A stretch of DNA of 64,000 nt, taken from sequence record PX104380.1; one strand, given 5' to 3'. This DNA is from a phage. The notes below the pieces were generated by a model, which ran no database searches, was not told the origin of the DNA, and was given only the letters and a program-made list of their open reading frames with translations. This document shows, in pieces, positions 13,459-45,531 of the stretch; positions within the stretch are counted from its first letter, which is position 1, and each line of letters opens with the position of its first letter. The position numbers and the translations under genes are program-made.

Positions 13459-14877
13459 TTATGGATAGGTATAGATGATACCAGTTTCTAAAGCAGTTTT
13501 ATGAATGATGTATCCATTACGCGATTCTTGAACATCAACTTCTGGATAATCTTTCATCATCTTCTGAAGAGTGTAACGATGCAGGTAGTACTTACTATCT
13601 GGGTCGTCAGTTTTCCAATCTTTACCTTCTTCAGTCATTTTTTGGATTTCATCCATAACCCACCAACCGCACCAGATGTAAGCTGAAGTACGGTGTGGAA
13701 GAGGATGAACATAAGGCAATTCACCTTCTGGTTCCGGAGCAACTTTATCAGTCACTTGAACTTGACCTGTTGTTTTAACTGTTTTGCTATCATAATCAGT
13801 TGCTGTAACGACAGCAGTAACTTCAATAGTTTGACTTCCAACAGATGAGGTATCGACAGTATATACGTTAGTTGACCCTTCTACAGGAGAAGAATCTTTC
13901 TTCCACGAGTAAGTAATTTGTGCTTCTTCTGGAGCATCCGTAACATTAGCCGTAAATGTAGCTGAAGCATCTTGCTGAACGTTAATAGAAGGAGGAGTCA
14001 ATGTAACCTGTGGATTCATTGTCTTCTTATTAACTGTCAATGATACTTCATTAGAAGTAACTTCCTTTTCATTGTAATTTTCTGCTGTTACTTGGGCTAC
14101 GCATTTAATTCTTTTTACTCCACTTGTAGTTGGAGTATAGCTAAATGTAGAGTTAGTTTCTCCACCAACTTGAGAATCATCTACATACCATTGATACGTA
14201 GCAGACGCTCCATCAGGTTGAGAAGCTAAGGCAGCAGTAAATTGAACTAGGGTTCCAATTACTCCAGCTGAAGGACTATCGGGAGTTACTGCCAAAGTAG
14301 TTGTCTGTGTCTTTTTATTAACAGTCAGTGACACTTCATTAGAAGTAACTTCTTTTGCATCATAATCTGTCGCGGTTACTTGAGCTACACACTTAATTGT
14401 TTTAACTCCACTTGTGTCAGGAGTGTAATTGAATGTAGCAGAAGTCGCTTCGTCTACAGGAGAACCATCAACGTACCATTGATACGTAGCAGATGCACCT
14501 GATGGCTGCGAAGCTAAAGCAGCGGTAAATTTAACAGCTGTTCCAATTACTCCTGCTGGAGGACTATTGGGAGTTACGGCTAAGGTAGTCGTCTGTGTCT
14601 TATTTTTAACTGTGATAGTTGTTGTCGCTTCAGCCGTTTCCGGGCCTCCTTCAGAAAGTGTATTTGTTGCAACAACTTTAATAGTCTTTTGACCAGCAGG
14701 ACCTTTTAATACATAATCAAAAGTTGCTTCAGACCCATCTTGTGGAGCATTATCTACACTCCAAGCATAAGTAATAGTTCCACCTCCAGTTTCACCACTA
14801 GGTGCAGCAGTAAACTGCTTGGTTTCATCAATAACTCCTGACGGTGTTTTAGGAGTTATATCAACTGTAAAAGCCAT
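13459..14877 (-). CDS. hoc: head outer capsid protein Hoc (472 aa, four Ig-like repeats)
   Basis: Ig-like repeats with QWYVD and KCVAQVTA motifs; position between 24.3 and inh; longer than the 376 aa I recall for T4 Hoc. Confidence 0.9.
   Translation of the reverse strand: MAFTVDITPKTPSGVIDETKQFTAAPSGETGGGTITYAWSVDNAPQDGSEATFDYVLKGPAGQKTIKVVATNTLSEGGPETAEATTTITVKNKTQTTTLAVTPNSPPAGVIGTAVKFTAALASQPSGASATYQWYVDGSPVDEATSATFNYTPDTSGVKTIKCVAQVTATDYDAKEVTSNEVSLTVNKKTQTTTLAVTPDSPSAGVIGTLVQFTAALASQPDGASATYQWYVDDSQVGGETNSTFSYTPTTSGVKRIKCVAQVTAENYNEKEVTSNEVSLTVNKKTMNPQVTLTPPSINVQQDASATFTANVTDAPEEAQITYSWKKDSSPVEGSTNVYTVDTSSVGSQTIEVTAVVTATDYDSKTVKTTGQVQVTDKVAPEPEGELPYVHPLPHRTSAYIWCGWWVMDEIQKMTEEGKDWKTDDPDSKYYLHRYTLQKMMKDYPEVDVQESRNGYIIHKTALETGIIYTYP
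14026..14601 (-). repeat. tandem direct repeat, 2 x 288 bp, inside hoc (duplicated Ig-like domain)
   Basis: aa 93-188 and 189-284 of Hoc are nearly identical; both begin KTQTTTLAVTP and end EVTSNEVSLTVNK. Confidence 0.85.
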
Positions 14878-14886
14878 AAGTTATCC

Positions 14887-15567
14887 TTATTTTAATGTTA
14901 CGAAAGAAGAATTGCGTGTTTCACGAATTAAAACTGATCCGTCGCGATTAATGTAATAAATTAAGCTAAACAGAGTTTGGTGTGCTGACGCGTGTTCAAA
15001 ACTAGTTGGATGAGATTTCCAATCAGGAGTTTCAGCGATCCATTGATAAATCCACCAAGGAACCGTACAGAATCCTGGATTTTTCCCCAATAATTGAAGA
15101 TTCGGGCTAAAGTTTTCCGGAAGAGTAAATACAGACGGCTTTTCAGATTCAATAATCTCAGCTACAGCTTGTTCAAACTTTTCTTCAACAAAAGGAGTGT
15201 CTTCAATCAAAACATCAGTATTTTCAGGAATTTTATCCGTTTCTACCACTTCAATTTTAATATCAGATTTAACTGGAGAATCAATCAGAAGTGCTGCTTC
15301 TGGATTGACTTCTTCATCGTCATATTTTAATCCCTCTGCAGCATCAGCAGCATCAATTAAGTCTTTAATAGATAACCCATCAGTCTCTGGCATAGGTTCA
15401 CTAGCGAGCTTCTGGAGGGCTTCTTCAATATCAACAACGATATTATCAAAAGATTTATTCTTTTTGACCTTTATACCAAACTGTTCAGCATATTCAGCTA
15501 ATTTAGCTTTAGCTTCTTTATTATCATCAAGAGCCTTCAGCTCTGCAATATAATCTTTATCTATCAT
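14887..15567 (-). CDS. inh: inhibitor of prohead protease Inh
   Basis: 226-aa ORF, ATG with SD GAGGA; T4 size and position. Confidence 0.8.
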   Translation of the reverse strand: MIDKDYIAELKALDDNKEAKAKLAEYAEQFGIKVKKNKSFDNIVVDIEEALQKLASEPMPETDGLSIKDLIDAADAAEGLKYDDEEVNPEAALLIDSPVKSDIKIEVVETDKIPENTDVLIEDTPFVEEKFEQAVAEIIESEKPSVFTLPENFSPNLQLLGKNPGFCTVPWWIYQWIAETPDWKSHPTSFEHASAHQTLFSLIYYINRDGSVLIRETRNSSFVTLK

Positions 15568-15580
15568 AATATTTCCTCAG

Positions 15581-15588
15581 TATAAATA
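15581..15588 (+). promoter_or_regulatory. late promoter TATAAATA for uvsW
   Basis: exact TATAAATA 29 nt upstream of ATG 15618. Confidence 0.5.
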
Positions 15589-15617
15589 TAGATATATTTA
15601 TTACATGGTATTTAGAC

Positions 15618-17129
15618 ATGACTGACATTAAAGTACATTTTTATGATTTTAGTCACGTGAGAATTGATTGTGAAGAAAGTACATTTCATGAACTCCGTGA
15701 TTTCTTTAGCTTTGAGGCCGATGGATATAGATTTAACCCTCGCTTCAGATATGGCAACTGGGATGGACGAATCCGTCTTTTAGATTATAATCGCCTTCTT
15801 CCATTCGGCTTAGTCGGGCAAATTAAAAAGTTCTGTGATAACTTTGGCTATAAAGTCTGGATTGACCCACAAATTAACGAAAAAGAAGAATTATCAAGAA
15901 AAGATTTTGATGAATGGCTTTCTAAATTAGAAATCTATTCAGGAAATAAAAGAATTGAACCACACTGGTATCAAAAAGATGCAGTGTTCGAAGGATTAGT
16001 TAATCGTCGTAGAATTCTTAATCTTCCAACATCTGCAGGTAAATCTTTAATTCAAGCTTTGCTTGCGCGATATTATTTGGAAAATTATGAAGGTAAAATT
16101 CTTATCATTGTTCCAACAACTGCTCTTACAACTCAGATGGCTGATGACTTTGTTGACTATCGTTTATTCAGTCATGCAATGATAAAGAAAATTGGTGGCG
16201 GAGCATCAAAAGATGATAAATATAAAAATGATGCACCAGTCGTTGTTGGTACATGGCAAACTGTAGTAAAACAACCAAAAGAATGGTTCTCACAGTTTGG
16301 AATGATGATGAATGATGAATGCCATTTAGCAACAGGAAAAAGTATTTCATCTATCATATCAAGTTTAAATAACTGCATGTTCAAATTCGGTTTGTCCGGT
16401 TCATTACGTGATGGCAAAGCCAATATCATGCAGTATGTTGGAATGTTTGGCGAAATATTTAAGCCAGTAACGACTTCTAAATTAATGGAAGATGGGCAAG
16501 TAACTGAGCTAAAAATTAATAGTATTTTTCTTCGTTATCCTGATGAGTTCACTACTAAATTAAAGGGAAAAACTTACCAAGAAGAAATAAAAATTATTAC
16601 TGGGCTCAGTAAAAGAAATAAATGGATCGCTAAATTAGCCATTAAGCTTGCGCAAAAAGATGAAAACGCTTTTGTTATGTTTAAACATGTATCGCACGGT
16701 AAAGCTATTTTCGATTTAATTAAAAATGAATACGATAAAGTTTATTACGTATCAGGGGAAGTTGATACCGAAACCCGCAATGTAATGAAAACTTTAGCTG
16801 AAAATGGTAAAGGAATAATTATAGTAGCTAGTTATGGTGTATTTTCTACTGGTATTTCAGTTAAAAATCTGCATCACGTTGTTTTAGCACACGGTGTTAA
16901 ATCAAAAATCATTGTATTACAAACAATCGGTCGTGTATTACGTAAGCATGGTTCTAAAACAATCGCAACGGTCTGGGACCTCATAGATGACGCGGGCGTA
17001 GTTTCTAAATCAAAAACATCTTCTAAAAAATACTCGCATTTAAACTATCTTTTAAAACATGGACTTGATCGTATTCAGCGTTATGCTGATGAGAAGTTTA
17101 ATTATGTGATGAAAGAGGTTAAACTTTGA
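15618..17129 (+). CDS. uvsW: UvsW helicase
   Basis: 503 aa; Walker A TSAGKS and DExH-like NDECH. Confidence 0.95.
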   Translation: MTDIKVHFYDFSHVRIDCEESTFHELRDFFSFEADGYRFNPRFRYGNWDGRIRLLDYNRLLPFGLVGQIKKFCDNFGYKVWIDPQINEKEELSRKDFDEWLSKLEIYSGNKRIEPHWYQKDAVFEGLVNRRRILNLPTSAGKSLIQALLARYYLENYEGKILIIVPTTALTTQMADDFVDYRLFSHAMIKKIGGGASKDDKYKNDAPVVVGTWQTVVKQPKEWFSQFGMMMNDECHLATGKSISSIISSLNNCMFKFGLSGSLRDGKANIMQYVGMFGEIFKPVTTSKLMEDGQVTELKINSIFLRYPDEFTTKLKGKTYQEEIKIITGLSKRNKWIAKLAIKLAQKDENAFVMFKHVSHGKAIFDLIKNEYDKVYYVSGEVDTETRNVMKTLAENGKGIIIVASYGVFSTGISVKNLHHVVLAHGVKSKIIVLQTIGRVLRKHGSKTIATVWDLIDDAGVVSKSKTSSKKYSHLNYLLKHGLDRIQRYADEKFNYVMKEVKL

Positions 17130-17818
17130 ATTATAAATTAATATACGATAATTTAATTAATAGAGCCCAGAATCGGGCTCGCCTTAATGGATACACTGAA
17201 ACTCATCATATAATTCCTAGATGTATGGGCGGTACAGATGATAAGTGTAATTTGGTAGAACTAACAGCTGAAGAGCATTTTATAGCTCATAAACTTTTAG
17301 CTAAAATTCATCCGAACCATTACGGTATAATTAAAGCCGTTATATGTATGGGGATGAATTCAAAGACTCATGAAAGACACGTTAATAAATCTTACGCCTG
17401 GGAACGTCGTAAAATGGCAGAACTTCAATCAGGTGAAGGTAATCCATTTTACGGAAAACACCATACGGAAGAACACAAACAATATATGTCAAAACTCATG
17501 AAAAATCGTCCAATTACGTGGGGAAGTAAAATTAGTAAAACTAAAAGAATGAACCCAACAAAATGGACTGAAGAAGCTAAAAGATTGCATTCTATCAATC
17601 AATCAGGTAAAAATAATGGCATGTATGGAAGGAAACATTCCGCTAAATCTATTCAGAAAATTAAAGATAACATGCCAGATAATTCAGGAGCTAATAACCC
17701 AGCTGCTAAACCTATAGAAGTAAATGGTGTTAAGTATAAATGCATGAAAGATGCTTCTAAAGCTACTGGATTATCAATGTACAAATTAAGAATACTTAGA
17801 AAAACAGTTAATTTATAA
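17126..17818 (+). CDS. free-standing HNH homing endonuclease, MobE-like paralog
   Basis: TTG start overlapping uvsW stop, SD GAAAGAGG upstream; N-terminus (M)NYKLIYDNLINRAQNRARL parallels the mobE ORF at 44890-45531 (MNYQKIYNDLISRAQAREPL); HNH motif ETHHIIPRCMGGTDDKCNLVELTAEEHFIAH. Confidence 0.75.
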   Translation: MNYKLIYDNLINRAQNRARLNGYTETHHIIPRCMGGTDDKCNLVELTAEEHFIAHKLLAKIHPNHYGIIKAVICMGMNSKTHERHVNKSYAWERRKMAELQSGEGNPFYGKHHTEEHKQYMSKLMKNRPITWGSKISKTKRMNPTKWTEEAKRLHSINQSGKNNGMYGRKHSAKSIQKIKDNMPDNSGANNPAAKPIEVNGVKYKCMKDASKATGLSMYKLRILRKTVNL

Positions 17819-17832
17819 GGGCTTCGGCCCTT
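17817..17832 (+). other. hairpin AAGGGC-UUCG-GCCCUU 3' of the HNH gene
   Basis: 6-bp stem with UUCG loop directly after stop codon; overlaps the SD region of uvsW.1. Confidence 0.45.
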
Positions 17833-17843
17833 TGGAGAAAAAG

Positions 17844-18074
17844 ATGTTACTAGAATTTAAACAATTTCTTTATGAAGCTTCTATTGATGAATTTATGGGT
17901 AAAATTGCCTCTTGCCAAACATTAGAAGGTTTAGAAGAACTTGAAGCTTATTATAAGAAAAGAGTTAAAGAAACTGAATTAAAAGATACTGATGACATCT
18001 CTGTGAGAGATGCTTTGGCAGGAAAAAGAGCTGAATTAGAAGATTCAGACGATGAAGTAGAAGAAAGTTTTTAA
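17844..18074 (+). CDS. uvsW.1: UvsW.1
   Basis: 76 aa from ATG 17844 with SD GGAG (ORF track starts at in-frame TTG 17832); T4 size. Confidence 0.7.
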   Translation: MLLEFKQFLYEASIDEFMGKIASCQTLEGLEELEAYYKKRVKETELKDTDDISVRDALAGKRAELEDSDDEVEESF

Positions 18075-18296: not shown

Positions 18297-18321
18297 GATT
18301 GTCTCCTTTTGAATATAGTAA

Positions 18322-18329
18322 TATTTATA
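18322..18329 (-). promoter_or_regulatory. late promoter TATAAATA for uvsY.-2
   Basis: exact TATAAATA on minus strand 25 nt upstream of ATG 18296. Confidence 0.45.
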
Positions 18330-18419
18330 AACCCATTTTAATCCGCATTTCTTGTACACGGATTAAGCAAGCTTCCATCTCTGCTAATAGTCGAAATACT
18401 TCTTTATAATCTGTCATAT

Positions 18420-43714: not shown

Positions 43715-44893
43715 TTAAAAATATTTTTTAAAACTCATCATAACTTTATCATCAACATCATTATCAATCTGTGCAACAAGATAAGATGACAGTTCTACTT
43801 CTTGCGGCGCGGATTGAACATTATCAGAATTAAGGTATTCACGAATCCAAGGATATGGATGTTTAACCGGAGCATCGGTAATTGGACATGGAAGACCGCA
43901 CTGTTTCATACGAGATACAGTTAAGTAATCAATAAAGCTCCACATGCTATTTGTATTTAATCCAGGAACATCGCCATCTTTAAATAAATGAACTGCCCAA
44001 TCTTTTTCTTGGCGGTTAACTTCCATGAAAATATCAACTGCTTCTTGTTCACACTCTTGAGCAATTTTAACCCATTCATCACCATCAGTGCCAAGCTGAA
44101 GTTGACGAATAATATATTGAGTGCCTTTAAGGTGAAGTTGTTCATCACGTGCAATGAACTTCATAATCTTGGCATTACCTTCCATGATTTCCATGTTCTT
44201 ATGGAAGTTAAAGGTACATGCGAAAGATACATAAAAACGAATAGCTTCAAGGGCATTAATAACATGCAGACACAGATAAAGCGACTTCATTAGCTCACGC
44301 TTCCAATATGTCTCATGCTCAATAGCATCTTCAATAACGTCTTCGTCTGCATTAATTTCTTTTTGGTATTCGATATCAGCTTTAGCGTTTTCCCAATAAC
44401 GAGTTTTAATCAGAACGTCATCATAATAACGTCCAATGGATTCAGCGCGTTTCATAATAGCTTCATCTAATACAATCTCATCAAATACCTTTGACGGATC
44501 AGTATAAAGATTTCGCATAATATGAGTGTATGAACGACTGTGAATAGTTTCACTAAAAGTCCATGTAGCAACCCATGTATCAAGACTTGGGTCTGAAATT
44601 AATGACATAAGTACAGCAGATGGCGCACGACCCTGAATGCTATCCAAAAGTGATTGATACTTCAGGTTGTTAGTAAAAATATTTTGCTGGTACTGAGGAA
44701 GCTTATTAAACTGTGCAGCATCCATCATTAAGTTTACTTCTTCAGGACGCCAAAAAAATGATAAAGATTTCTCAATAAGTTCTTCAAATACTCTATGTCG
44801 TTGAATATCATATCGAGCTAAACCCAATCCAGAACCAAAAAACATCGGCTCAGTCAAAATATTAACAGGGGATGTATTAAAAACTGTACTCAT
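43715..44893 (-). CDS. nrdB: ribonucleotide reductase small subunit (intron-less)
   Basis: 392 aa uninterrupted; diiron-site segments present; SD AAGGA. Confidence 0.95.
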   Translation of the reverse strand: MSTVFNTSPVNILTEPMFFGSGLGLARYDIQRHRVFEELIEKSLSFFWRPEEVNLMMDAAQFNKLPQYQQNIFTNNLKYQSLLDSIQGRAPSAVLMSLISDPSLDTWVATWTFSETIHSRSYTHIMRNLYTDPSKVFDEIVLDEAIMKRAESIGRYYDDVLIKTRYWENAKADIEYQKEINADEDVIEDAIEHETYWKRELMKSLYLCLHVINALEAIRFYVSFACTFNFHKNMEIMEGNAKIMKFIARDEQLHLKGTQYIIRQLQLGTDGDEWVKIAQECEQEAVDIFMEVNRQEKDWAVHLFKDGDVPGLNTNSMWSFIDYLTVSRMKQCGLPCPITDAPVKHPYPWIREYLNSDNVQSAPQEVELSSYLVAQIDNDVDDKVMMSFKKYF

Positions 44894-45531
44894 TTAGAAT
44901 CCTTAAATTTACATTTATCATAATGCCATCTTAAAGCATTGCCTTTATTAACTTTCTTGCCACAATGCGGACAAGGCGGATACTCTGTACCTTGCTTAGT
45001 TCTCAAAGAAATCAAATCACGGGTTTCTTTAGTATGAGGAACATCTCTTGTCGGAGAAATTGTACCATACATCGGATTAAGCACGCCGACTTTAGCAGCA
45101 GCTATATTCTTTTTAGCTTCTTCGGTTTTAGGTTTTCTCATGCGAGCTAAATGCTCTTTGGTAAATTTCCTTCCTTTAAGAGCTCTACTTATCTTTTCTC
45201 TGGTTTCCATAGAAACTTCACGTCCTATAGCAGCTTCAGATAAACGTCGTCTACCTAATTCGTACAGTTGAGAAGAAATTTTATATGAGCGATTTTTACC
45301 AGTCAAGCACATTAAACCAAAAGCTTTCTTTAATCCTGGGGTGTCATATATTTTACATAAAAGCCAATGAGCTATAAAATGCTCTCTACCTGTTAATTCA
45401 ACTAAATTTTCTTTATCATCAGAACCTCCCATGCATTTAGGGACTATATGATGTGTCTCTTTATATTCGGATAAAGGTTCCCGAGCCTGAGCTCGGGAAA
45501 TTAGGTCATTATAGATTTTTTGATAATTCAT
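44890..45531 (-). CDS. mobE: free-standing HNH homing endonuclease MobE
   Basis: 213 aa between nrdA and nrdB, the T4 mobE position; HNH motif ETHHIVPKCMGGSDDKENLVELTGREHFIAH; TAATG overlap with nrdA, ATGA overlap with nrdB. Confidence 0.8.
   Translation of the reverse strand: MNYQKIYNDLISRAQAREPLSEYKETHHIVPKCMGGSDDKENLVELTGREHFIAHWLLCKIYDTPGLKKAFGLMCLTGKNRSYKISSQLYELGRRRLSEAAIGREVSMETREKISRALKGRKFTKEHLARMRKPKTEEAKKNIAAAKVGVLNPMYGTISPTRDVPHTKETRDLISLRTKQGTEYPPCPHCGKKVNKGNALRWHYDKCKFKDSK

Follow-up and report, generated by a model that had tools for sequence, protein, structure and literature searches.

The 64,000-nucleotide stretch of sequence record PX104380.1 analyzed here (the window) is T4-like phage DNA at the Tequatrovirus level. 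Between the helicase gene uvsW and uvsW.1, which is followed in order by uvsY.-2, uvsY.-1, uvsY and gene 25, it carries an open reading frame (ORF) for a protein with an HNH nuclease motif, called the HNH gene and HNH protein below. The features of this junction are as follows.

15618-17129, plus strand: uvsW helicase gene, 503 aa (ORF list)
17042-17129, plus strand: HNH-linked allele of the uvsW 3′ end, covering its last 87 nt (alignment with phages lacking the gene)
17111-17118, plus strand: Shine-Dalgarno (SD) sequence GAAAGAGG of the HNH ORF, within the replacement uvsW tail and 7 nt before the TTG
17115-17803, plus strand: 689-bp insert, as measured against the empty site ATGAAA+ACAGTTAATTTATAAGGGC (empty versus filled sites)
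17126-17818, plus strand: HNH ORF, 230 aa, TTG start, between uvsW and uvsW.1 (ORF list)
17163-17180, plus strand: GC-rich hairpin in the HNH gene, codons 13-19, no U-tract (z = -2.9; T6 allele, -3.5)
17192-17290, plus strand: HNH catalytic motif, aa 23-55 (YTETHHIIPRCMGG...N42...EEHFIAH; 18-homologue alignment and profile match)
17405-17491, plus strand: best NUMOD3 repeat, aa 94-122 (Pfam)
17702-17803, plus strand: predicted C-terminal I-TevI-type helix-turn-helix DNA-binding module, aa 193-226 (profile and Foldseek)
17804-17818, plus strand: native uvsW tail, ACAGTTAATTTA plus TAA, encoding TVNL* (ACAGTTAATTTATAA), which here closes the HNH ORF as its last four codons and stop
17819-17843, plus strand: native UUCG hairpin GGGCTTCGGCCC (17819-17830), TTT, then the uvsW.1 SD sequence GGAG (17834-17837)
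17844-18074, plus strand: uvsW.1, 76 aa, ATG at 17844 (ORF list)

The TTG at 17126-17128 overlaps the uvsW stop codon TGA at 17127-17129 (cTTTGA). In the HNH frame a TAA at 17120-17122 lies two codons 5′ of the TTG, so no upstream extension of the ORF is possible, and the next canonical starts, an ATG at codon 34 and a TTG at codon 43, are both past the His-His pair H27/H28. Neither an upstream extension nor an alternative ATG start was therefore retained. A sequence-only reading of this DNA had placed the start at TTG 17126, with no ATG ahead of the HNH motif and a strong SD sequence upstream of the overlap with the uvsW stop, and both statements hold. Within the first 33 codons, the window and the T6 allele differ by only two synonymous changes and one replacement (G22E), and M1, Y3, Y7, Y23, E25, H28, P31 and C33 are invariant among 18 homologues. 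Across the whole gene, 22 synonymous and 5 non-synonymous differences separate the window from the T6 allele, which corresponds to a ratio of non-synonymous to synonymous substitution (dN/dS) of 0.05 at about 18% synonymous divergence. Judged by this ratio and by the conserved residues before the first ATG, the HNH ORF is coding and under selection, and its translation most likely begins at the TTG overlapping the uvsW stop.

Orthologues with 48-70% identity were found at uvsW/uvsW.1 in 11 further lineages (Klebsiella Jiaodavirus, Escherichia phages PSD2002 and MT446411, Morganella Rgz1, and seven metagenomic contigs). All 11 start at the codon aligned with the window TTG and overlap the uvsW stop. 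With the window included, five lineages use TTG, six use ATG and a single one uses GTG; start and stop overlap as NTGA in 11 of the 12 and as TAATG in the remaining one, a conserved overlap such as would be expected of a coupled gene pair. The five TTG lineages are 49-59% identical to each other, except for one pair at 85%. The closest orthologue of the window gene, that of Klebsiella Jiaodavirus (69% identity), has an ATG at the aligned position, one base different from the TTG. It is also evident that the first base of the HNH start codon is the third base of the final UvsW codon, so that silent changes in the last codon of UvsW switch the strength of the HNH start. The SD motif ATGAAAGAGGT is found upstream in three of the TTG lineages (the window, L022 and L028), and in several ATG lineages an SD sequence is not clearly present; with 12 lineages, this pairing of SD sequence and start codon is anecdotal.

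Comparison of empty sites (L005, L006 and L019-L021) with filled sites (the window, T6, PST, ZN18 and G8) defines the insertion. In Tequatroviruses the empty site reads ...AATTACGTAATGAAA followed by ACAGTTAATTTATAAGGGCTTCGGCCCTTTGGAGAAAAAGATG (uvsW.1), and the filled site reads ATGAAA, the insert (GAGGTTAAACTTTGAATTAT...CTTAGAAAA) and ACAGTTAATTTATAAGGGC, with boundaries that are ambiguous by 3 nt owing to AAA microhomology at the junction. The gene order given by the sequence-only reading, with the HNH gene downstream of uvsW and before uvsW.1, is right, but the insertion point itself lies within the last five codons of uvsW and not in the spacer. The 5′ end of the insert supplies the last codons and the stop of uvsW (17115-17129, EVKL*), which now ends KEVKL*, and this foreign tail contains both the SD sequence of the HNH gene and the TTG/TGA overlap. 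At the other end, 17804-17818 is identical to the uvsW 3′ end (KTVNL*) of Tequatroviruses without the HNH gene, and the hairpin and the uvsW.1 ribosome-binding site past the native stop are unaltered by the insertion. The window thus shows a C-terminal replacement of the kind described for mORFs (see below), and the same layout was found in L022 and L024. In MT446411 (L024), both UvsW and the endonuclease have the tail IKQVEI*, and the gene is bordered by a 19-nt direct repeat; in PSD2002 (L022), the UvsW tail is KEVQI*, and that of the endonuclease, MKQVDL*, is the native uvsW tail of the gene-free relative L010. Other lineages, among them those of Klebsiella and Morganella phages, show a clean ATGA...ATGA insertion without tail duplication.

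A second gene of related type lies elsewhere in the window.

44890-45531, minus strand: mobE paralogue, 213 aa, between nrdA and nrdB, with a Cys-rich C-terminus

The sequence-only reading had likened the N-terminus of the HNH protein to that of this ORF and counted the two as MobE-family paralogues. The two proteins do align, with 39% identity over 183 aa (BLASTP, E = 3e-33), up to about residue 180, and both match PHROG 655 "homing endonuclease" (E = 1.6e-61 for the HNH protein and 1.7e-66 for MobE); the mobE ORF is to be placed on the minus strand. In the 18-sequence alignment, Y23, E25, H28, P31, C33, G35, G36, N42, E50, H51 and H55 are invariant, and the catalytic or metal-binding residues H27/H28, N42 and H51/H55 of the HNH motif are fully or almost fully conserved. 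Conservation along the protein is highest in the N-terminal 33 residues and the HNH motif, and a profile made from the alignment matches the HNH domain of McrA (6GHC, E = 7.6e-4). Membership of NUMOD3 (PF07460) is evident from a Pfam score of 51.8 bits against a cut-off of 20.4, over two stretches; Pfam coordinates are given for the best stretch only, and the second probably lies at about aa 158-186 (17597-17683), judging from a SGKNNGMYGRKHS motif. In the C-terminal part the alignment profile matches the I-TevI DNA-binding domain (PDB 1I3J/1T2T, E = 1e-4), and an AlphaFold model of the protein (pLDDT 78) has 1i3j_A as its top Foldseek match (probability 1.00); the match to the Pfam family of this domain (PF20987) is weak, as are whole-model searches otherwise. 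The HNH protein has no Cys-rich C-terminal finger, and its site is uvsW/uvsW.1 rather than nrdA-nrdB. These comparisons indicate that the HNH protein is a MobE-like paralogue in its catalytic part and not a MobE orthologue, which narrows the original family assignment. As a separate observation at the mobE locus, nrdB (43715-44893, minus strand) is a single uninterrupted ORF of 392 aa; neither the group I intron of T4 nrdB nor I-TevIII is thus present in the window phage, though mobE is kept next door.

The same 693-nt ORF, at the same site and with the same TTG/TGA overlap, was found at 96-99.6% nucleotide identity in 49 phage records, 48 of which match over the full 693 nt; five copies were translated, and these five were confirmed intact. 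The carriers make up about 10% of the approximately 502 Tequatrovirus-level records, defined as those matching the uvsW region at 90% identity or higher. Such sporadic presence at one fixed site, with an empty site defined within 3 nt, is characteristic of a free-standing homing endonuclease gene. Among the carriers are T6 (MH550421, T6ORF179, "hypothetical protein") and Yersinia phage PST (KF208315, gene "mobD", product "MobE"), and a check of the T4 sequence showed no HNH gene at uvsW/uvsW.1. The single long "uvsW" of T4 is a known sequencing error (PMC1524935, PMC6486255). Existing annotations conflict: RefSeq gives "homing endonuclease", and elsewhere the product is a hypothetical protein, an intron endonuclease or group I intron endonuclease, a portal protein or a tail tape measure protein, while the UniRef entry for UFV-AREG1 (P0008) is a truncated 146-aa version. 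The HNH gene is therefore real and uncharacterised and is not new, being already present and annotated in T6 and other phages.

The 3′ end of uvsW itself differs between carriers and non-carriers. Compared with genomes without the HNH gene, 17042-17129 shows about 10 mostly synonymous substitutions in addition to the new tail. With 16960-17125 as a query, the same 49 HNH-carrying records were recovered at 97% identity or higher, and every other record was at 91% or lower; the linkage of this polymorphic tract to the HNH gene is thus perfect (49/49). Either this allele is donor flank that was co-converted, or it is a variant of the target that resists cleavage. On the right flank (the uvsW.1 side), sequence comparison revealed no HNH-linked divergence. 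A similar pattern is seen in another genus, in which L027 has the gene, with a GTG start, and L012 lacks it. Over 1300 nt of uvsW the two differ by 0-1%; in its last 150 nt the difference rises to about 25%, nearly all of it synonymous, and rightward they are near-identical again. By this comparison, the pair is an independent replication of the linked-flank pattern. In L027 the cassette has, in addition, taken the place of the 7-nt spacer and of the first uvsW.1 codons (MSCFKEF... versus MDFKEF... in L012), and hence the right junction of the element differs between lineages. No donor lineage was identified for the foreign uvsW tract, the best outside matches being about 79% identical and in Klebsiella phages.

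The opposite end of uvsW is also a site of endonuclease insertion. Upstream of uvsW the window contains the following features.

13459-14877, minus strand: hoc (ORF list)
14887-15567, minus strand: inh (ORF list)
15568-15617, no strand assigned: inh-uvsW spacer, 50 bp, without segE, holding a late-promoter-like TATAAATA at 15581-15588 on the plus strand (ORF list and TATAAATA scan)

In T4, T6 and PST the inh-uvsW gap is occupied by segE (618 bp), so the earlier remark that segE is missing here and present in T4 is correct. The target of SegE is listed as uvsW (PMC2988022, table). Like the HNH gene, segE flanks uvsW, is sporadic (159 records) and is accompanied by a divergent tract at the adjacent end of uvsW, with about 25 substitutions in the first 100 nt (15618-15717) between phages with and without segE. 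It differs in encoding a GIY-YIG enzyme, of an unrelated nuclease family, and in lying at the other end of uvsW. All four combinations of presence and absence of segE and the HNH gene exist, and T6 and PST carry both. The proposal that the surroundings of uvsW are a recurrent landing site for unrelated homing endonucleases is borne out by these combinations. The segE-linked 5′ tract and the HNH-linked 3′ tract show uvsW to be flanked by two independent endonuclease landing sites. Several further observations were made in this region. Positions 100-150 of uvsW form a separate mosaic block common to the window, T4, T6 and PST and not shared by other segE-free phages. An IMG/VR contig (L009:1183-1902) has at inh/uvsW a segE-like gene 48% identical to T4 SegE, so that the 5′ site also hosts divergent endonuclease alleles. 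The hoc gene encodes 472 aa in the window versus 376 aa in T4, apparently with one extra Ig-like repeat, and is of the same length in OES_C-2. The uvsY.-2/uvsY.-1 spacer (18297-18419, minus strand) is 123 nt long versus 26 nt in T4, and contains a 30-codon ORF (18325-18417, MTDYKEVFRLLAEMEACLIRVQEMRIKMGL) and a late-promoter-like TATAAATA (18322-18329, minus strand); the 123-nt spacer is shared with the IMG/VR locus L006 and is absent from T4, T6 and PST.

We also examined how the HNH gene could be expressed. On the plus strand between 15400 and 17126, the match to the late-promoter consensus TATAAATA before uvsW is the only one. No promoter of its own was found for the HNH gene, as there is no TATAAATA on the plus strand in 15589-17126 and shuffled sequence has more sigma-70-like matches than the real one, and no terminator was found between uvsW and the HNH ORF. 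With the only TATAAATA lying before uvsW and no terminator in between, the HNH gene and uvsW, a late gene in T4, should share a transcript. No RNA hairpin that would mask the ribosome-binding site, of the sort known from Aeh1 mobE or I-TevI, was found (fold of 17070-17170, z = -1.27, not significant). The GC-rich hairpin inside the HNH gene has a counterpart in the window mobE (45478-45499, minus strand, z = -4.3) at the same codon position (about 13-19), with different arm sequences, and HNH orthologues encode a different peptide at the hairpin position. In T4 mobE an internal terminator has been described at the hairpin, and translational coupling has been proposed from the overlap of the mobE AUG with the nrdA stop (UAAUGA) (PMC2988022); the window mobE shows the same overlap (TAATGA). 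All T4 free-standing endonuclease genes begin with AUG, save mobA with GUG (PMC2988022). Translation of the HNH ORF should be weak, whether it occurs by termination-reinitiation, by SD-assisted initiation or by the two together.

Taken together, the HNH gene probably encodes a functional free-standing homing endonuclease, composed of HNH, NUMOD3 and I-TevI-type helix-turn-helix parts, of a lineage whose particular site is the uvsW/uvsW.1 junction in T4-like phages. Lacking its own promoter, the gene would depend on the late promoter at 15581, which it would share with uvsW, and ribosomes terminating on uvsW would re-initiate at the TTG with the aid of the SD sequence, giving a low level of protein. 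In a mixed infection the enzyme would cut the 3′ end of uvsW or the junction in phages without the gene, and repair from the carrier genome would copy the cassette together with roughly 90-150 bp of the left flank. Carrier genomes would be protected by having the site split by the insert and recoded, mostly synonymously.

Several points count against an active homing endonuclease. The score against Pfam HNH (PF01844) is 16.8 bits, below the gathering cut-off of 21.4, and the window MobE scores 23.1; the motif is short and divergent, which is reflected in the sub-threshold score. Initiation at TTG is poor, and the HNH protein may therefore be scarce. The linked uvsW tract may have hitch-hiked from the donor and alone does not locate the cleavage site, and a divergent patch further upstream (16989-17042) is shared by LH2 and OES_C-2, which lack the gene; LH2 and OES_C look like recombinants. 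In 1 of the 49 records, that of BF15 (L030, MW822007), a 4-nt deletion of one ATCA of ATCAATCA (equivalent to window 17594-17597) shifts the frame and leaves 195 aa, and the HNH gene can therefore be lost without killing the phage; such decay is expected as an occasional event. A full-text literature search found no publication on this HNH gene.

The alternative that fares best concerns the mode of initiation only. It holds that ribosomes start at the TTG independently, driven by the SD sequence, instead of by coupling to uvsW; as a variant of the model above it is not mutually exclusive with it, and we regard it as possible, if the less probable version. It would account for the strong GAAAGAGG 7 nt upstream, for the lack of a masking RNA structure, and for the tendency of TTG lineages to have GAGG or AGGTGGA upstream, a clear SD sequence being missing from several of those with ATG. 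It does not account for the stop/start overlap, which is kept in 12 of 12 lineages, even where no SD sequence can be recognised, and this points to the overlap itself as the selected feature.

A different possibility is that the protein has been domesticated or is made in a shorter form, either as a nuclease-free DNA-binder from an internal ATG or as a factor in competition or exclusion that serves mainly something other than its own spread. DNA binding would be within reach of the NUMOD3 and helix-turn-helix modules by themselves, the UFV-AREG1 annotation is of a 146-aa version, and the lineage persists at one site across several genera. Against this, the N-terminal 33 residues and the HNH motif are the most conserved, and the patchy presence in about 10% of close relatives together with the linked flank allele fits a selfish element and not a core function. 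We consider domestication unlikely.

Slightly less likely still is that the HNH gene is a decaying, inactive remnant, its ancestral ATG having become TTG and useful expression of the ORF having ceased. Homing endonuclease genes cycle through decay, the BF15 copy has its deletion, and the ATG of the Klebsiella Jiaodavirus gene is a single base away from the window TTG. A gene in decay would hardly retain a dN/dS of 0.05 across about 18% synonymous divergence, invariant catalytic residues, full length in 48 of 49 records and intact translations in the five copies inspected; moreover, TTG recurs in five lineages, in three of them beside a strong GAGG SD sequence. Finally, a UvsW-HNH fusion by ribosomal frameshifting where the two frames overlap at cTTTGA can be dismissed as wholly improbable, as the TAA at 17120-17122 leaves a single codon (ACT) for the shift, there is no slippery heptamer, and orthologues differ in sequence at the overlap.

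Among known systems, T6ORF179 and PST mobD are structurally no different from the window gene; segE is present in T6 and PST and not in the window. MobE of T4 and of the window resembles the HNH gene in its N-terminal HNH and NUMOD3 region, in a start overlapping the stop of an upstream essential gene, in the hairpin at codons 13-19 and in having no promoter of its own. MobE differs in that its C-terminus is a Cys-rich finger (CPHCGKK...WHYDKCKF) instead of an I-TevI-type helix-turn-helix, and in having an ATG start and an insertion in the nrdA-nrdB spacer, whereas the HNH gene starts with TTG inside the uvsW tail. The mobile endonuclease ORFs (mORFs) of fungal mitochondria (Allomyces atp6; Glomus atp6, atp9, cox2 and nad3) form hybrid genes with a duplicated C-terminus (PMC3630166). 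There, too, an endonuclease ORF lies near the 3′ end of the host gene, which has a foreign in-frame C-terminus, and the native one lies downstream and is identical to that of element-free relatives (PMC3630166). The HNH gene belongs to a phage and swaps five codons where mORFs swap tens to hundreds, its displaced native tail in the window serves as the C-terminus and stop of the endonuclease itself, and its enzyme is of the HNH type in contrast to the GIY-YIG or LAGLIDADG enzymes of mORFs. I-HmuI and I-TevIII (HNH, NUMOD and helix-turn-helix) are intron-encoded, unlike the free-standing HNH gene, and the similarity is too weak to rank them. The analysis adds the exact layout of the tail-swap insertion, a perfectly linked flank allele whose pattern recurs in a second lineage, a start of ATG, GTG or TTG that overlaps the uvsW stop throughout the family, and a helix-turn-helix C-terminus unlike that of MobE.

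The HNH gene is thus an unnamed and uncharacterised addition to the free-standing homing endonucleases of T-even phages, and, since it is present in T6, a phage in standard laboratory use, the predictions made here are directly testable. Its identification corrects the inconsistent annotations (portal, tape measure, intron endonuclease and the 146-aa form) and explains why uvsW is shown in many records as "two helicase genes with something in between". No general principle is changed by this finding. The tail swap and the interchangeable ATG, GTG and TTG provide a compact natural example of a selfish gene that fits into a coupled operon while keeping its own expression low. We suggest, tentatively and at somewhat less than even chances, that this lineage may have evolved a general way of entering a translationally coupled operon without harm, with a recoded tail doubling as ribosome-binding site and start, with a borrowed native tail, stop, hairpin and downstream ribosome-binding site, and with the wobble base of the final UvsW codon setting dosage, by silent drift or by selection, through ATG, GTG or TTG. 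If this is true, a TTG with a strong SD sequence and an ATG with a weak one would be alternative settings for low expression.

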